Source: a virus
Lineage: Duplodnaviria; Heunggongvirae; Uroviricota; Caudoviricetes
Length of the DNA stretch: 20,232 nt
IMG/VR virus record: IMGVR_UViG_2728369554_000020
Strand: one strand, 5' to 3'
Positions 897 to 19,688 of this stretch are shown in pieces. The position numbers and the translations under genes were made by a program. How positions within the stretch are numbered: position 1 is the stretch's first letter; every line of letters begins with the position of its first letter. The notes beneath the pieces are model-generated. The model made no database searches, was not told the DNA's origin, and worked only from the letters and a program-made list of their open reading frames with translations.

Positions 897-1175
897 TCAG
901 CGCCTTCGTAATACAAGGATTTTTGATACGTTCCCGCGTGCTCGTATCACCAGCACGCAGAACACCAGGTTAATCAGGACAACCAGCCAGTTACCTGGTG
1001 GGAAGCGACCACACAGATAACAAAGCGGTGCAAAAGCATAAAGCAGCATCAACAGCCAGGCCAGCCACGACATCAGCGGTTTATATCTCGACTCACCGCG
1101 ACGATAAAAAAAGAGCGTCAGCACGATAACCGAGCTTAACACCACATTCAGTAATCCGGGAAGGTTACTTAACAT
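897..1175 (-). CDS. small membrane protein with three hydrophobic segments, putative holin/antiholin
   Basis: ATG at 1175 preceded by GGAGG (5-nt spacer); 92 aa with three hydrophobic stretches and a basic C-terminus (RRR); sits immediately upstream of the endolysin. Confidence 0.55.
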   Translation of the reverse strand: MLSNLPGLLNVVLSSVIVLTLFFYRRGESRYKPLMSWLAWLLMLLYAFAPLCYLCGRFPPGNWLVVLINLVFCVLVIRARGNVSKILVLRRR

Positions 1176-1554
1176 TACCGCCTCCACCCCGCAGACGGGA
1201 GAACAGCCCGGATACCAGCGATGCGATATCCTGCTGGTGGATGAATGAGAGAATCTTCACCGACACCACCGATACCAGTACCGCGCAAAGCGCGTCGAGA
1301 GATGTGCTGTGGAGATTCAGTTTTTCGACCAGGTAAGACGCCATCACATCCGCCCCCAGTACGCCAACAATGAACGACACCAGAAAATGCGCTGCCACAC
1401 GCCAGACAGAAATCTTCTGTGGTATCGTGGCCACAAACAGCGCCCCTGCGAATGCGCCAAACACAATCCCGAAATTCGTTCCGGTAAACAGTCCAAATAT
1501 CGTCGCCCCGCCGAGTGCCGCAGCCGTGCCGGAACCGGATAAGGGTTCAGACAT
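1165..1554 (-). CDS. glycine-rich multi-TM membrane protein, putative holin
   Basis: ATG at 1554 preceded by AGGAG (9-nt spacer); 129 aa with several hydrophobic Gly/Ala-rich segments; first gene of the lysis cluster. The track ORF extension to 1971 has no RBS and crosses two terminators. Confidence 0.6.
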   Translation of the reverse strand: MSEPLSGSGTAAALGGATIFGLFTGTNFGIVFGAFAGALFVATIPQKISVWRVAAHFLVSFIVGVLGADVMASYLVEKLNLHSTSLDALCAVLVSVVSVKILSFIHQQDIASLVSGLFSRLRGGGGNVK

Positions 1555-1570
1555 ACTTTTTCTCCTGTAA

Positions 1571-1594
1571 ATAAAAAAGGGCCTCTGTCGGCCC
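1571..1594 (-). terminator. intrinsic terminator about 20 nt upstream of the lysis cassette
   Basis: Minus-strand hairpin GGGCCGACAGAGGCCC followed by TTTTTTATTT. Confidence 0.5.
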
Positions 1595-1721: not shown

Positions 1722-1749
1722 TAAAAAAAATGCCCGTCAGGAGACGGGC
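1722..1749 (-). terminator. intrinsic terminator (second of a tandem pair upstream of the lysis genes)
   Basis: Minus-strand hairpin GCCCGTCTCCTGACGGGC followed by TTTTTTTT. Confidence 0.5.
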
Positions 1750-2031: not shown

Positions 2032-2107
2032 TGGAGAGCGGTGGCGGGAATCGAACCCGCATCATCAGCCTGGAAAGCTGAGGTAATAGCCATTATACGA
2101 TACCCGC
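2032..2107 (-). tRNA. tRNA-Gly(UCC)-like element, probably degenerate at the 3' acceptor strand
   Basis: Hand fold of the minus strand: acceptor 5' GCGGGTA, 3-bp D stem, anticodon stem TCAGC/GCTGA with loop TTTCCAG (anticodon UCC), T arm GCGGG-TTCGATT-CCCGC; the following CACCGCTCTCCA does not pair canonically with the 5' acceptor strand. The 5' ~65 nt closely match my recollection of E. coli glyT. Confidence 0.5.
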
Positions 2108-2324
2108 ATACTGTACTGGCTTCCGGAATCACACGAATTACCAGGAAAGCCAGCACTGGTCCTTCAGACGGTAGTAACGCCCCTGTGAACACAAAAATAA
2201 CCGTCTTCCGGACCAGTCAGAATACTAACGACAGTTTTTCAGACATCAAAAATATATTTGGTGTTCAGTTTTAAATATGTGTATACATCTGTATCAGAAA
2301 TATACAACTTATATCATCACTGAA

Positions 2325-3371
2325 TTAAAAATCTTTCGTTATTTCTCTGACCGTCTGATTAAAACGTTCCTCTTCCAGTTCCACGCCAATCGCCCTGCGT
2401 TCCAGCGACAGTGCTGCTTTTATTGTCGACCCCGACCCCATAAAAAAATCTGCGACCAAATCGCCTGGACGGCTGCTGGCAGTAATTATCTGACGCAACA
2501 TATCCGCCGGTTTTTCACAGGGATGTTTGCCCGGATAATACTGCACGGGCTTGTGCGTCCAGACATCCGTATAAGGAACGACAGCCGATACGGAAAAATA
2601 ACGCCGCAGTGATTTGTATTCCTCCAGCAGGCTGGCATATTGCCGGTTCAGTTCGCTGTATGTGCTGACCAGCTGGTGGTGTGGCTGCTCCAGTTCACCG
2701 CGCTGGTGTTTTTCTGCCGCCACACGTGCAAACAGCGCCTGCAGTTTACTGTAATCGGCCTCATTCGGTAACTGCCACTGACTGGTACCAAACCAGTGCG
2801 AAGCCATGTTTTTCTTTCCGGTGGCTTCTGCTATCTGTTTTGACGTTATCCCCAGTGATTCACGCGCATCACGGAAGTAAGAAATCAGCGGGGCCATCAC
2901 GTGCTGTTTAAGCTCGTGCCCCTTTGCCGCATAGCCGTCATTTTTTGGCTGGTATGGCCCCTGATAATGTTCAGCAAACAGAATGCGCTCTGTTGCCGGG
3001 AAATATGCCCGTAAACTTTCCTTATTGCACCCGTTCCAGCGTCCGGACGGCTTCGCCCAGATAATGTGGTTCAACACATTAAAACGTTCACGCATCATGA
3101 GTTCAATATCTGATGCCAGTCGATGGCCACAGAACAGGTAGAGACTTCCGGCAGGTTTCAGTACCCGCCAGAACTGCGCCAGACACTGAGCCAGCCATTT
3201 CAGGTAATCATCGTCCCCCTTCCACTGGTTATCCCAGCCCTCGGGCTTCACTTTAAAGTATGGCGGGTCTGTGACTATCAAATCGACAGAGTTTTCCGGT
3301 AAGGTCCGGATAAATTCCAGGCAATCAGCGTTGATTAACTCACAACTGGATATTTTTACAGTATTAGCCAT
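2325..3371 (-). CDS. DNA methyltransferase (N6-adenine/N4-cytosine type, beta-class motif order)
   Basis: 348 aa; DPPY motif (LIVTDPPYF) near the N-terminus and FxGxG (DFFMGSGST) near the C-terminus; no adjacent restriction endonuclease ORF. Confidence 0.85.
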   Translation of the reverse strand: MANTVKISSCELINADCLEFIRTLPENSVDLIVTDPPYFKVKPEGWDNQWKGDDDYLKWLAQCLAQFWRVLKPAGSLYLFCGHRLASDIELMMRERFNVLNHIIWAKPSGRWNGCNKESLRAYFPATERILFAEHYQGPYQPKNDGYAAKGHELKQHVMAPLISYFRDARESLGITSKQIAEATGKKNMASHWFGTSQWQLPNEADYSKLQALFARVAAEKHQRGELEQPHHQLVSTYSELNRQYASLLEEYKSLRRYFSVSAVVPYTDVWTHKPVQYYPGKHPCEKPADMLRQIITASSRPGDLVADFFMGSGSTIKAALSLERRAIGVELEEERFNQTVREITKDF

Positions 3372-3469: not shown

Positions 3470-3496
3470 ATAAAAAAGCCTTCACTGCGGAAGGCG
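3470..3496 (-). terminator. intrinsic terminator at the end of the small winged-helix gene
   Basis: Minus-strand hairpin GCCTTCCGCAGTGAAGGC followed by TTTTTTATTT, overlapping the stop codon at 3482-3484. Confidence 0.45.
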
Positions 3497-3679
3497 TCTG
3501 TAACAACCGAACTGATAATCTGCCAGACCCGCCATAACAAGCTGGGTCAGTATTAACTGGCAGCGTTCGCGTGAAAGGTAAGTATTCTGCGCAATTTCCC
3601 CGACGGTCGCCGGTTCGGTGACGCTTAATTCATTAAACACCACTCTGGCGGTTTCGGTCATATCCTGCTGTTTTAGCAT
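3482..3679 (-). CDS. small winged-helix-like protein (65 aa), putative DNA-binding regulator
   Basis: ATG at 3679 with AAGGA about 10 nt upstream; segment PATVGEIAQNTYLSRERCQLILTQLVMAGL resembles a winged HTH. The track ORF start at 3772 has no RBS. Confidence 0.45.
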   Translation of the reverse strand: MLKQQDMTETARVVFNELSVTEPATVGEIAQNTYLSRERCQLILTQLVMAGLADYQFGCYRRLPQ

Positions 3680-3965: not shown

Positions 3966-4784
3966 TCAATTATGTTTTAAGAATGGATAGGTAAAGAATA
4001 ACAAGTGACACAGATTCAGACCAAAATGGAAAAGGGTTGCCACCCACAAGCGCCCACTCCACATCCATGACAATCCATACACAACACCAGATAACGTGGC
4101 AAATAATACAAGTAAAGCACCACCTGAATAGTGAAAAAAACCAAACAACAAAGACGCCACAATTAACGCAATCAATGGAGACGTTACTTCTGATAGCCGT
4201 GATTGAATATACCCTCTAAATAATGATTCCTCTGCCAGAGACACAAAAAACAAATTAGCCAATATAAACTCTGGCAACCACTCAGGAAAATGAATCTCTG
4301 GTTTTAACCCACCAAAAAAAACAGCCAAAAACAGGATAAGAGGAACAGAGAGCAACAGAGCCCCCCATTTCCACAAAGACACTTCTGATTTCACTTCTTT
4401 TTTAAACAAAGAAGCTGTACACAGGACTAACAAAAATGGCACCAGCGCTTTATCAAAATTAAAATACATTGTATAGGGAGTGCTTTGAGGTCCGACAGTA
4501 ACAGACTTTAGCACTACAGGATTGTGAAACCCTGGCCATAAATGGAAAGATAATGCTATGGCTGATAAAACTATGCCAGCTTCATATATGGATTTAGCCC
4601 AGGCGTTATATTTCCAGTTGAACTTCAAAATAATAAAAAAAACGATTGTAGAAACAAAAAACAACACAGGCCAATCAATAATATCATTAAGCATAGCCAG
4701 GACAACAGACACCGTTAACAATGAAAAAGCCACTACCTTATGCCAACTGAGAGTTGACAGTGCCAGTGCTAACACAATCCACAT
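3966..4784 (-). CDS. CPBP-family intramembrane metalloprotease (Abi / CAAX-protease-like)
   Basis: 272 aa multi-TM protein with EExxxR (EESLFRG), FxxxH (FGFFH) and HxxxN (HFGLN) motifs in the expected order; ATG at 4784 preceded by AAGGAG; clearly AT-rich relative to flanking phage genes. Confidence 0.8.
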   Translation of the reverse strand: MWIVLALALSTLSWHKVVAFSLLTVSVVLAMLNDIIDWPVLFFVSTIVFFIILKFNWKYNAWAKSIYEAGIVLSAIALSFHLWPGFHNPVVLKSVTVGPQSTPYTMYFNFDKALVPFLLVLCTASLFKKEVKSEVSLWKWGALLLSVPLILFLAVFFGGLKPEIHFPEWLPEFILANLFFVSLAEESLFRGYIQSRLSEVTSPLIALIVASLLFGFFHYSGGALLVLFATLSGVVYGLSWMWSGRLWVATLFHFGLNLCHLLFFTYPFLKHN

Positions 4785-4936: not shown

Positions 4937-5311
4937 CTACCGCATATCCATATCTAACCTAACATTCAGAGCCATAAGCATTCCTTCAATAATACCTTCC
5001 GCTTTATAAAGTCTTTTACCAATAAACCCATCAGAACATCTATGCTTACGTGCAAGAGCCATAAATGTCATTCCACCTACGTAATAATCCACCAACAAAT
5101 CGTGCAAATACTGATTATTCTTGTTTAATCGTGCCATACAGCCACAAATTATCATGGCGTCATCATCAGAACACTGAGGACGTGATTTCACTTTAGTCGG
5201 GATTAATCCTTTAAAACCAGCAGCTATCGAGGGCCATGTTACATCTTCATGATTATTTGCTGCCCATGCTCCCCACCGCTCCATAACCAGCTGAATATCA
5301 CGCAACATCAT
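4937..5311 (-). CDS. late-gene antitermination protein Q (phage 82 / QuuD-like family)
   Basis: 124 aa; N-terminal [23 protein letters not shown] and central [14 protein letters not shown] match my recollection of the Q82/QuuD family; lies upstream of the late/lysis region and overlaps the end of rusA. Confidence 0.75.
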
Positions 5312-7494: not shown

Positions 7495-7680
7495 TTACTC
7501 CTCAGATTCGTAAGCTGTGAAGACAGCGACCTCCGTCTGGCCGGTTCGGATTCGTACCTCGCAGAGGTCTTTCCTCGTTACCAGNNNNNNNNNNNNNNNN
7601 NNNNNNNNNNNNNNNNNNNNNNNNNNNNNNNNNNNNNNNNNNNNNNNNNNNGCGATTAACATCGCCTTTTGCTGCTTCAT
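7495..7680 (-). CDS. hok: Hok/Gef-family type I toxin, interrupted by a run of N
   Basis: N-terminal MKQQKAMLI and C-terminal LVTRKDLCEVRIRTGQTEVAVFTAYESEE flank the N run and match the Hok family as I recall it; ATG at 7680 with AAGGAG upstream. Confidence 0.6.
   Translation of the reverse strand: MKQQKAMLIXXXXXXXXXXXXXXXXXXXXXXXLVTRKDLCEVRIRTGQTEVAVFTAYESEE
7575..7651. other. run of 77 N (masked or unresolved sequence) inside the hok-like gene
   Basis: Literal n characters at 7575-7651. Confidence 1.
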
Positions 7681-8018
7681 AGCCTGCTTCTCCTTGCCTT
7701 TCGGCACGTAAGAGGCTAACCTACGTTTGTGTAGCATAGATTGGGCCTCAGATTAATGTTAAGCGTCTTGCCGGACGCGTAATGTTAACTGGGGCTTTTC
7801 TCTGTCTGCCTTACAGTGGCATGCCCGAGGCAGACAGCCTCAAGCACCCGCAACAATCTTACCGACACCGATAAGAAAACGCTATTTTTTATTGCCAGAA
7901 CCTTCTGCCCAGGCTAATGTATCCGCGTCAGAACGGCGCAATGCGCTCGCCTGAGATACGTTTACTTGTCATTGGTGGCAACAGATAACGGCAATTGTTG
8001 TTTCTGTTTGTTTCCTTC

Positions 8019-18270: not shown

Positions 18271-18331
18271 TGTTCAACTGTCGCCAGTTGTAGTTGGTAT
18301 TCTGCAACTGGCGCGTTCCGGAGTGATAGCC

Positions 18332-18601
18332 ATGAGCGAACAGTACCTGATAACGCTCGACGAGTGGAAACCCAAACGGTTCAGTCTCCCAATAACAAAC
18401 ACTACCCTGGTGAAATACGGAAAACTAGGATACATCGTTCCAAGACCACAAAAAATTCGTGGGCGTTGGCTGATAGATCGCCGGGCAGTATTTGTTGGAC
18501 CTGGTGAAACGGGAATTGCGCCGGAAATTCATACTGGCGATGATGATGCACTGAAGGAGATTTTAACTCATGTCACCGAGGCCACGAAAAAACAGCACTG
18601 A
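18332..18601 (+). CDS. xis: excisionase (lambda Xis-like)
   Basis: ATG at 18332 with GGAG 8 nt upstream; YLITLDEW...VPRPQKIRGRWLIDRRAVFV resembles lambda Xis; overlaps the integrase start by 32 nt. Confidence 0.65.
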   Translation: MSEQYLITLDEWKPKRFSLPITNTTLVKYGKLGYIVPRPQKIRGRWLIDRRAVFVGPGETGIAPEIHTGDDDALKEILTHVTEATKKQH

Positions 18602-19688
18602 CGTAGCCGGACTTTACGAAAAATTTGATCGCAGAACTGGCAGAGTTTACTACCAGTATAAAAACCCTGTGACTGGAAAATTTCACGGGCTCGGAACAGA
18701 CAAAGGTAAGGCAGAAAAAATCGCTTCCACAGCCAATCAGCGAATAGCTGCAGCAGAGGCTGAATATTTCATGCGCAAAATTGATGAAAGTCCGTCAGCA
18801 ACAAAGCGTCGGGGTATCAGATTAAAGGCATGGGTTGATCGATATCTGAAAATACAGGACACGCGACTGAAAAATGGAGATATTGCAGCTACAACTCACA
18901 AAGAAAAAGCCCGAATGGCTGCATACCTGGTTTCCCGTCTGGGAAACCACCCATTGAAAGAACTGGAAGTAAGAGACTTTGCATTAATACTGGATGAGTG
19001 GCTGGATAAAGACATGGTCAGCACAGCGAGAGTAAATCGTGGATTATGGGTTGATATTTATAAAGAAGCACAGCATGCAGGGGAAGTTCCTCCTGGATGG
19101 AATCCTCCGGAGGCTACCCGTAAACCGATCCCTAAAGTAACCAGAGCCAGGCTCACCCTGGAAGACTGGCAAAAAATTTACAACGCAACGCCTGAAAAAC
19201 ACTTTATCCGTAACGCAATGCTTCTTGCGATTGTTACTGGTCAGCGCCGTGATGACATTTGCCACATGCGTTTTTCAGATGTGTGGAACGAACACTTGCA
19301 TATCACCCAGGGAAAAACCGGAATGCGTCTGGCGTTACCGCTTACACTACGCTGTGATGCCATTGGGATAACGTTAAAAGAAGTTATTGATGGGTGCCGA
19401 GACAGAATATTAAGTCCATATCTAATCCATAGTCGGCACCAGAAACAACCAAAGCCGATGAGTAAAGACAACCTGAGCGACTACTTTGCCAAAGCACGGG
19501 ATCTGGCTGGGATAACTCCACCAGCAGGAAAAACTCCGCCAACATTTCATGAACAACGCTCCCTGTCAGAACGACTGTACCGCGCGCAGGGTATTGATAC
19601 AAAAACATTACTGGGACATAAAGTCCAGGCAACCACCGATCGTTATAACGATACTCGTGGTCAGGAATGGGTTAAATTGGTTGTTTGA
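18570..19688 (+). CDS. int: tyrosine integrase (lambda Int family)
   Basis: 372 aa; AAGGAGA upstream; C-terminal catalytic region TGQRRDDICHMRFSDV ... HEQRSLSERLY ... LLGHKVQATTDRYND colinear with lambda Int. Confidence 0.9.
   Translation: MSPRPRKNSTDVAGLYEKFDRRTGRVYYQYKNPVTGKFHGLGTDKGKAEKIASTANQRIAAAEAEYFMRKIDESPSATKRRGIRLKAWVDRYLKIQDTRLKNGDIAATTHKEKARMAAYLVSRLGNHPLKELEVRDFALILDEWLDKDMVSTARVNRGLWVDIYKEAQHAGEVPPGWNPPEATRKPIPKVTRARLTLEDWQKIYNATPEKHFIRNAMLLAIVTGQRRDDICHMRFSDVWNEHLHITQGKTGMRLALPLTLRCDAIGITLKEVIDGCRDRILSPYLIHSRHQKQPKPMSKDNLSDYFAKARDLAGITPPAGKTPPTFHEQRSLSERLYRAQGIDTKTLLGHKVQATTDRYNDTRGQEWVKLVV

Follow-up and report, generated by a model that had tools for sequence, protein, structure and literature searches.

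The tRNA-Gly(UCC)-like element carried by this lambdoid prophage is very probably a pseudogene, that is, a phage-borne paralogue of the host gene glyT that is decaying in this prophage. The window, by which we mean the whole stretch of 20,232 nt that was analysed, is 100 per cent identical to the chromosome of the bovine isolate Escherichia coli KS-NP019 and represents most of a lambdoid prophage adjoining potC. The element is encoded by the minus strand (window 2107..2032, GCGGGTATCGTATAATGGCTATTACCTCAGCTTTCCAGGCTGATGATGCGGGTTCGATTCCCGCCACCGCTCTCCA) and falls short of a functional E. coli tRNA gene in three defining respects: its acceptor stem does not have 7 bp, its cloverleaf is not predicted to be stable, and its CCA is not adjacent to the discriminator. 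The initial annotation, made from the sequence alone, had reported a tRNA-Gly(UCC)-like element at this place, and the Rfam model and the alignments described below bear it out and assign it to the minus strand. Three readings of its aberrant 3′ end had been offered, namely a decaying phage-borne tRNA, a homopolymer sequencing error and a recombination junction of the integrase type. The first is supported by the existence of intact homologues in the same slot and by a graded series of alleles in the Rfam scores; the other two are not supported. The features of the region are listed in Table 1.

Table 1. Features of the tRNA-Gly region and of the surrounding prophage, in window coordinates
Feature	Position	Strand	Basis or remarks
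tRNA-Gly(UCC)-derived element	2032..2107	−	Rfam RF00005, RefSeq, alignment to K-12 glyT and phage copies
Landmarks of the element	G1 at 2107; anticodon TCC 2074-2072; T loop TTCGATT 2055-2049; terminal CCA 2034-2032 (final A at 2032)	−	
5′ acceptor strand GCGGGTA	2101..2107	−	Same as in canonical phage copies; host glyT has GCGGGCA
Anticodon loop TTTCCAG	2070..2076	−	Sublineage changes C32T (2076) and A38G (2070)
3′ acceptor strand, defective (CACCGC), followed by the discriminator T	2037..2043	−	Alignments; gap and non-standard pairs in the RF00005 match
Extra TC between discriminator T (2037) and CCA (2032-2034)	2035..2036	−	TCTCCA instead of TCCA
Stub of another tRNA, in much more advanced decay	2111..2154	−	BLAST and MAFFT alignments, RNAalifold hairpin; directly upstream of tRNA-Gly
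Conserved hairpin with 18-nt arms	2155..2217	−	Inverted-repeat search, alignment fold; between methylase gene and tRNA relics
Terminator-like hairpin GCCCGTC-TCCT-GACGGGC plus T8 run	1722..1749	−	Between tRNA and holin gene; hairpin at 1749-1732
Second terminator-like hairpin GGGCC-GACAGA-GGCCC plus T run	1569..1594	−	Just upstream of the holin start; hairpin at 1594-1579
Holin gene, first of the lysis cassette downstream of the tRNA	1165..1554	−	Pfam PF16931; RefSeq
DNA methyltransferase gene (N6_N4_Mtase)	2325..3371	−	Pfam PF01555, E = 2e-44; RefSeq; directly upstream of the tRNA region
Small hypothetical gene	3482-3679	−	Pfam and RefSeq gene order
CPBP protease gene	3966-4784	−	Pfam and RefSeq
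Antiterminator Q gene	4937..5311	−	Pfam PF06530, E = 8e-51; marks the start of the late region
Lambda-type integrase gene	18570..19688	+	Pfam PF09003 and PF00589; 16.5 kb from the tRNA

When the whole window was searched with the Rfam tRNA covariance model, RF00005 matched positions 2107..2037 with 41.4 bits (E = 7e-6), above its gathering score of 29 bits. The D, anticodon and T arms align well to the model, and the deviations fall in the acceptor stem, where one position is deleted and two pairs are non-standard. All three arms are free of non-standard pairs except U13·U22, the T loop is of the GTTCGAnTC type and the anticodon loop has 7 nt. The D stem consists of 3 bp and the U13·U22 mismatch, exactly as in K-12 glyT; this mismatch is not a defect, since the host gene carries it too. 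The anticodon stem is perfect (TCAGC/GCTGA), and C35 and C36 of the anticodon are both present. The arm details given in the initial annotation (a 3-bp D stem, a perfect anticodon stem, a UCC anticodon and a TTCGATT loop) thus all hold. Through the T arm the body of the element departs from intact phage-borne tRNA-Gly at positions 32 and 38 only, a resemblance far beyond chance. Comparison with the host gene had been suggested as a check, and the similarity is clear: in a global alignment 69 of the 75 glyT positions are identical. A tRNA scanner had been suggested as well; ARAGORN, run on the full 20-kb window, called no tRNA. In the identical record of KS-NP019, RefSeq annotates 2037-2107 (71 nt) as a tRNA-Gly and does not flag it as a pseudogene.

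The 3′ end of the element, CACCGCTCTCCA, pairs with GCGGGTA at only four of the seven in-register positions, one of them through a G·U wobble, in agreement with the earlier claim that the two acceptor strands cannot pair. Three differences separate it from the canonical TACCCGC-T-CCA: T66C (window 2043), the loss of one C (CC at 2040-2041 where the canonical and intermediate alleles described below read CCC) and the inserted TC. These are not the product of a single event. A seven-bp acceptor stem is absent, and the best alternative includes a bulged G and an A·C mismatch. The CCA does not directly follow the discriminator either; the window reads T-CT-CCA, whereas glyT and the canonical phage copies read T-CCA.

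Folding was predicted with ViennaRNA, a thermodynamic approach in which base modifications and proteins are ignored. The cloverleaf lies 0.9 kcal/mol above the minimum free energy (MFE) for both K-12 glyT and the canonical phage allele and 2.7 kcal/mol above it for the intermediate allele. For the window allele the distance is 8.1 kcal/mol in the best (bulged) register and 12.5 kcal/mol in register. The predicted MFE structure of this allele is a misfold in which the 5′ GCGGG pairs with the T-stem strand CCCGC to give a long non-tRNA hairpin. As GCGGG occurs both in the 5′ acceptor strand and in the 5′ strand of the T stem, the CCCGC that partners the latter is also a competing partner for the 5′ end. 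According to these predictions, the cloverleaf would not be the stable fold of the window-allele transcript.

Could the gene nevertheless be working? With one G of the 5′ strand bulged, three plus two Watson–Crick pairs would form in the acceptor stem, the CUCCA trailer would be trimmed, and CCA would be added by the host nucleotidyltransferase, the enzyme that provides CCA to those T4 tRNAs whose genes lack it. The identity elements of E. coli GlyRS are G1-C72, C2-G71, G3-C70, U73 and the anticodon positions C35 and C36. In the window allele the three acceptor pairs with U73 depend on the bulging of a G in the 5′ strand, and are absent in register; some charging may be conceivable, as the modelled bulged register keeps these first three pairs and the U discriminator. 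The Rfam score above the gathering threshold, the intact D, anticodon and T arms and the RefSeq entry as tRNA-Gly are also compatible with a working tRNA. However, the bulged cloverleaf is predicted to be 8.1 kcal/mol less stable than the misfold, and its acceptor/T-arm helix would be one step short and interrupted by the bulge and the A·C mismatch. The element is rejected by ARAGORN, none of the 126 canonical copies listed tolerates an indel at this place, and the sole other allele with the C deletion, that of PapRG-04-4, went on to mutate C72. We consequently regard a still-working tRNA-Gly as unlikely.

The genes around the element follow one another on the minus strand in the order Q, CPBP protease, hypothetical protein, methylase, tRNA, holins, GH108 endolysin and terminase (Pfam and RefSeq), with a second holin gene and the endolysin gene coming after the holin gene of Table 1. 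The element thus occupies the tRNA slot of the late operon, between Q and the lysis cassette and on the same strand, a slot that is homologous in other lambdoid phages. The excisionase and integrase genes together span 18323-19688 on the plus strand, in accordance with the initial description of the element as lying inside the prophage and far from int. In related phages this slot is filled by one to three tRNA genes. Q is followed directly by tRNA genes for Asn, Thr and Gly in phage JLK-2012. In the LT-IIb phage SerU-LTIIb two pairs, Arg-Gly and Thr-Gly, lie between the methylase and holin genes, and an intact tRNA-Gly is found in the same slot of the E. coli prophages GF31, WAT, CEA224S and K_EC180. 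The prophages GF31, WAT and CEA224S also share the upstream tRNA stub and the methylase with the window. The element descends from these tRNA modules of lambdoid late operons.

A scan of IMG/VR with the 5′ 48 nt of the canonical phage gene matched at least 120 contigs, and the whole comparison included about 140 related copies, at least 126 canonical and 15 belonging to the sublineage of the window element. The lambdoid phage-borne tRNA-Gly(UCC) found in at least 119 IMG/VR contigs is of the same family, lies in the same slot and has the same 5′ acceptor strand GCGGGTA as the window element. Another intact tRNA directly precedes it in 104 of the 119 canonical copies among the IMG/VR matches listed. 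The 3′ half (CGGGTTCGATTCCCGC-TACCCGC-T-CCA) is identical in 111 of the 126 canonical copies listed, and the remaining 15 contain one or two substitutions in it; indels in the 3′ half were found in none of the 126. In every one of them (126/126) CCA directly follows U73, despite the many differing downstream flanks. Unlike the window element, the canonical phage tRNA-Gly has an intact TACCCGC-T-CCA end, is recognized by ARAGORN and scores 55-66 bits.

The only difference between the canonical phage gene and K-12 glyT (b3978) is the compensatory change from C6-G67 to T6-A67. The window element has the same anticodon, D arm (U13·U22 included), anticodon stem, variable loop and T arm as glyT. It differs by T6/A67, T32, G38, C66, one C fewer and TCTCCA, whereas glyT has C6-G67, C32 and A38, pairs all 7 bp of its acceptor stem and carries CCA directly after U73. 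Their genomic settings are also distinct, glyT being part of the thrU-tyrU-glyT-thrT-tufB operon and the window element part of a prophage.

A second scan of IMG/VR, with the anticodon arm of the window, retrieved ten contigs, which together with E. coli loci make up the sublineage of 15 copies. This sublineage is present in 13 of 5,426 complete E. coli genomes, mostly of bovine isolates. Four derived states are common to all 15 copies: C32T, A38G, T66C, which creates an A7·C66 mismatch at the base of the acceptor stem, and the extra TC before CCA, which occurs in 0 of the 126 canonical copies listed. The alleles can be arranged in three stages, from the canonical CCCGC-TACCCGC-T-CCA through the sublineage to the window allele, which is the sublineage form minus one C. 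The founder-like form of the sublineage, CACCCGC-TCTCCA, scores 54.3 bits and is called by ARAGORN. The Rfam scores are 65.6 bits for the canonical allele, 54.3 and 46.8 bits within the sublineage, 41.4 bits for the window allele and 36.4 bits for that of PapRG-04-4. ARAGORN calls the canonical and intermediate alleles and neither of the two alleles with the C deletion.

The C deletion is the sole difference between the window and RM11911 over about 700 nt and appears to be recent. Three complete genomes, those of KS-NP019, NS-NP030 and BCE049, have the exact window allele, with an identical stretch of 81 nt; their prophages share 100, 91 and 61 per cent of the window, respectively, and are different mosaics. 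In PapRG-04-4 the same deletion is accompanied by a C>T change at C72, the position facing G1. This copy lies on another flank haplotype, and the deletion arose at least twice, because the sister copy L022 on that second haplotype keeps CCC.

These data bear directly on the suggestion that the C was lost through faulty assembly or base calling and that the true sequence is the intermediate allele, CACCCGCTCTCCA. The loss of one base in a CCC run and the otherwise complete identity of the intermediate allele over the same 700 nt or so would be expected of such an error. A run of three bases is, however, a weak error context, and the shared 81-nt stretch comes from separate projects, in which three complete genomes with different prophage mosaics were assembled independently. 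In PapRG-04-4 this loss recurs on a different haplotype. CCC is read in six other assemblies, whose prophages are near-identical, and a systematic miscall at this site can therefore be set aside. As the other two lesions of the 3′ end are shared by 15 of 15 sublineage copies, we consider the homopolymer error of the initial annotation highly improbable.

Other copies of the sublineage have accumulated changes of G-C to G·U in the T stem, and one copy carries G53A. The allele diversity of the 3′ half (H) is 0.76 in the sublineage (15 copies, six alleles) versus 0.22 in the canonical group (126 listed copies, six alleles), a contrast for which the Fisher test (p = 9e-6) is descriptive only, the copies not being independent. 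This higher diversity suggests a relaxed constraint on the sublineage sequences. Nucleotide diversity (pi) within the sublineage is 0.018 for the tRNA versus 0.085 and 0.114 for the flanks, but it is not a clean measure of constraint, because the flanks vary as recombined haplotype blocks. Two of the five variable sites in the sublineage merely turn G-C into G·U, and for this reason the intermediate allele may still be functional.

Decay of a phage tRNA-Gly would have proceeded as follows. After induction, the intact gene would be expressed as part of the late operon and its tRNA excised from the transcript, and its presumable role would be the extra decoding of the glycine codons GGA and GGG. 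Codon compensation is presented as the most widely accepted role of phage tRNAs in the abstract of PMC10264068. In line with such a role, GGA and GGG are heavily used: in the 33 CDS examined from the BCE049 prophage, which shares 61 per cent of the window, they represent 47 per cent of glycine codons. In E. coli genes overall these two codons represent about a quarter of glycine codons. An older sublineage would have gained C32U, A38G, U66C with the resulting A7·C66 mismatch, and the TC insertion that displaced the encoded CCA. The window allele would next have lost one C of the CCC run, after which the 7-bp acceptor helix could no longer form and the 5′ GCGGG is predicted to be captured by the T-stem CCCGC in a non-tRNA hairpin. 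Its position suggests that the element would be transcribed with the late operon, and the window allele most probably yields a transcript that is neither processed nor charged as a tRNA. The Rfam score above the gathering threshold, the RefSeq entry without a pseudogene flag and the lower pi of the tRNA relative to its flanks are among the observations that speak against decay.

The neighbouring stub provides a precedent for decay in this very slot, a second tRNA being already reduced there to a remnant. It comprises paired acceptor-like strands, GCTGGCT and AGCCAGT, around a degenerate T arm, and has lost the D and anticodon arms. An alignment places its final 23 nt at the 3′ end of the tRNA-Thr or tRNA-Arg that precedes tRNA-Gly in JLK-2012 and SerU-LTIIb.

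Integrases commonly target the 3′ halves of tRNA genes, and the homology between prophage lineages stops right after the 3′ end of this tRNA. It could thus be imagined that the 3′ end is a scar of site-specific recombination, left by integrase action or by an element that inserted there and replaced the end of the tRNA. However, the sequence downstream of the tRNA differs in every lineage, including those with intact copies, which show the same flank breakpoint. On the basis of these differing flanks, the 3′ end of the tRNA is a mosaic boundary between phage modules, and the break in homology after CCA reflects ordinary mosaic exchange at a conserved tRNA. The integrase and excisionase genes are 16.5 kb away at the potC-proximal end, and no gene lies in the 480 nt that separate the tRNA from the holin gene. 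The point changes are dispersed over positions 32 and 38, position 66, the CCC run and the tail, were gained in at least two steps and leave a nearly whole tRNA. Neither the aberrant nor the canonical tRNA 3′ end recurs in the window when up to three mismatches are allowed, and the displaced canonical end, TACCCGCTCCA, was not found as a direct repeat bounding a downstream insert in this or related prophages. A recombination junction of the integrase type, as envisaged in the initial annotation, is therefore extremely improbable.

Two related candidates were examined and rejected. The element is not an att-site fragment of a tRNA: it does not lie at the boundary next to int, and its end pattern matches once in the window. 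Neither is it a hybrid of two tRNAs, which would need the 5′ strand GAGCGGT; no such strand is present, and one and the same 5′ half is found in all ten IMG/VR copies that have the T32/G38 loop. To our knowledge, no E. coli tRNA end matches the 3′ end of the element when it is read as acceptor strand, discriminator and CCA. An insertion of 2 nt and a deletion of 1 nt explain this 3′ end more simply than a tRNA hybrid.

Fixation of the four sublineage changes in 15 of 15 copies over several flank haplotypes raises the question of whether the sublineage was repurposed. The tRNA-like RNA, together with the adjacent hairpins and the minihelix-like stub, could help to process or stabilize the late transcript (for instance as a signal for RNase P or RNase E), or else as a decoy for, or a variant insensitive to, host anticodon nucleases. 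If this were true, the one-base deletion of the window allele would be tolerated because competence in translation would no longer be selected. Two of the fixed changes are located in the anticodon loop, and mutation of this loop has been proposed as a means of nuclease evasion in the abstract of PMC10264068, a paper that does not mention tRNA-Gly. The element also sits among conserved hairpins with compensatory changes. In the one at 2155..2217, the pairs 40-77 and 41-76 are changed on both sides in three of six sequences, the changes being compensatory between haplotypes. Disruptive changes (G53A, the C deletion and C72T) nevertheless build up in individual copies, and a decoy would need the tRNA fold that the window allele is predicted to lose. 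Repurposing seems to us quite improbable.

In the literature search, neither this tRNA-Gly of lambdoid or LT-II prophages nor ileZ, argN or argO was found described. PMC6266700, which deals with the pR′ region, makes no mention of tRNAs. Several known systems can be compared with the window element. The first is the tRNA cluster ileZ-argN-argO, which Shiga-toxin phages carry downstream of Q. The likeness lies in rare-codon tRNA genes placed in a Q-dependent late transcript upstream of the lysis genes, but those genes specify other tRNA species and are intact, whereas here a single degraded tRNA-Gly is found with a neighbouring stub. The ends of the K-12 prophages DLP12 and CPS-53 carry pseudo-tRNA fragments derived from argU and argW at the attachment sites, which are likewise tRNA-derived prophage sequences and not working tRNA genes. 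They are, however, short 3′ pieces at the boundary by int, duplicated as core repeats of att, whereas the window element is an almost complete, single copy in the interior of the prophage, 16.5 kb from int. Finally, the intermediate and window alleles resemble the CCA-less tRNA genes of the T4 type in having no CCA right after the discriminator, and any maturation of these alleles would thus need trimming and CCA addition. The tRNAs of T4 have intact acceptor stems and a known maturation; in the present case, the CCA was displaced by a 2-nt insertion, and the relatives of the element (126 canonical copies listed) encode CCA.

The locus is already public as a tRNA-Gly, and eroded prophage tRNA genes are commonplace. 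The present results matter little beyond an annotation correction and an example of stepwise decay. The allele annotated by RefSeq as tRNA-Gly in KS-NP019, NS-NP030 and BCE049 has very probably lost its function, and a pseudogene flag would suit it better; the number of phage-supplied tRNAs in these strains would therefore be slightly overstated. As an example of tRNA erosion in the slot between Q and holin, the allelic series is a tidy one, leading from the canonical form through a displaced CCA and a mismatch at the base of the stem to a broken acceptor stem, with the older stub beside it. The repeated GCGGG/CCCGC motifs of tRNA-Gly would make a one-base loss recurrent and misfolding easy.

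A hammerhead-like CUGAUGAG motif at about 2016-2023 of the window (minus strand) was also considered and is attributed to chance, an Rfam scan of 1700-2400 with E values up to 10 having returned no ribozyme match. Two ORFs overlap the tRNA, one of 108 aa at 1948-2274 on the plus strand and one of 54 aa at 2028-2192 on the minus strand, and RefSeq includes neither. Considered as protein-coding alternatives, both were rejected as read-throughs of the tRNA sequence.

Automated annotation does not register the defect in the tRNA-Gly element. The allele of the window, in which one C of a CCC run is lost, is given in RefSeq as a plain 71-nt tRNA-Gly in all three records carrying it (NZ_AP024123.1, NZ_AP024126.1 and NZ_CP042250.1), each time without a pseudogene flag, and the copy of strain PapRG-04-4 (36.4 bits), which has the same deletion on a different flank haplotype, is likewise annotated as tRNA-Gly. 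Normally invariant tRNA positions are altered in other phage copies as well. In the tRNA-Gly of phage JLK-2012 (positions 3002-3076 of its sequence; 55.4 bits), position 8 is C rather than U and a C32-G38 pair is present; the copy on an IMG/VR contig (L018) carries G53A. The annotated tRNA-Thr of JLK-2012 is not called by ARAGORN. Among tRNAs of this slot, erosion seems to be common.

A minihelix-like remnant of a second tRNA lies immediately upstream of tRNA-Gly. Its acceptor-like strands, GCTGGCT and AGCCAGT, are paired around a degenerate T arm, while both the D arm and the anticodon arm are missing. In JLK-2012 and SerU-LTIIb, tRNA-Gly is preceded by a tRNA-Thr/Arg, and the 3' end of the stub aligns to the end of that tRNA. 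Every methylase-linked prophage examined has kept the stub, including carriers of an intact tRNA-Gly.

Between the methylase stop codon and the tRNA relics there is a hairpin with 18-nt arms. Compensatory changes between haplotypes (GACGG/CCGTC versus GGTGG/CCACC) suggest that this hairpin is a conserved RNA structure of the late transcript. Further compensatory changes are found in the outer stem in strain EC11, where the hairpin is retained though tRNA-Gly is wholly absent. Downstream of the tRNA are two more stems, with arms that co-vary across prophage haplotypes and loops that differ.

Features of the prophage window and their coordinates
Feature	Position	Strand	Description
Terminator-like hairpin	1569-1594	minus	intrinsic type, strong, with T run
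Terminator-like hairpin	1722-1749	minus	intrinsic type, strong, with T run
Inverted repeat	1800-1819/1865-1884	minus	20 nt, 95% complementary, 45-nt spacer
Two stems	~1925-1995	minus	GAAGAA..TTCTTC and CTGTAA..TTACAG
Second tRNA stub	2111-2154	minus	
Hairpin	2155-2217	minus	
sok antisense RNA	7675-7849	minus	full-length; Rfam RF01794, 116 bits

The presence of two terminator-like hairpins in the interval from the tRNA to the start of the holin gene suggests that expression of the lysis genes depends on Q-mediated read-through from far upstream. The arrangement also suggests that the CPBP protease gene, the methylase gene and the tRNA relics all lie within a putative antiterminated leader.

Comparison of EC11, WAT and JLK-2012 downstream of the tRNA slot revealed a TerB-family/DUF3927 (tciA/tciB) gene pair in the tRNA-to-holin interval of some prophages and a porin gene upstream in others. 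This interval is a probable hotspot of cargo-gene exchange, which would account for the loss of homology exactly where the tRNA ends on its 3' side.

Elsewhere in the prophage, a Hok/Gef toxin gene (hokD-type CDS) adjoins the sok RNA, with which it forms a predicted type I toxin-antitoxin module.
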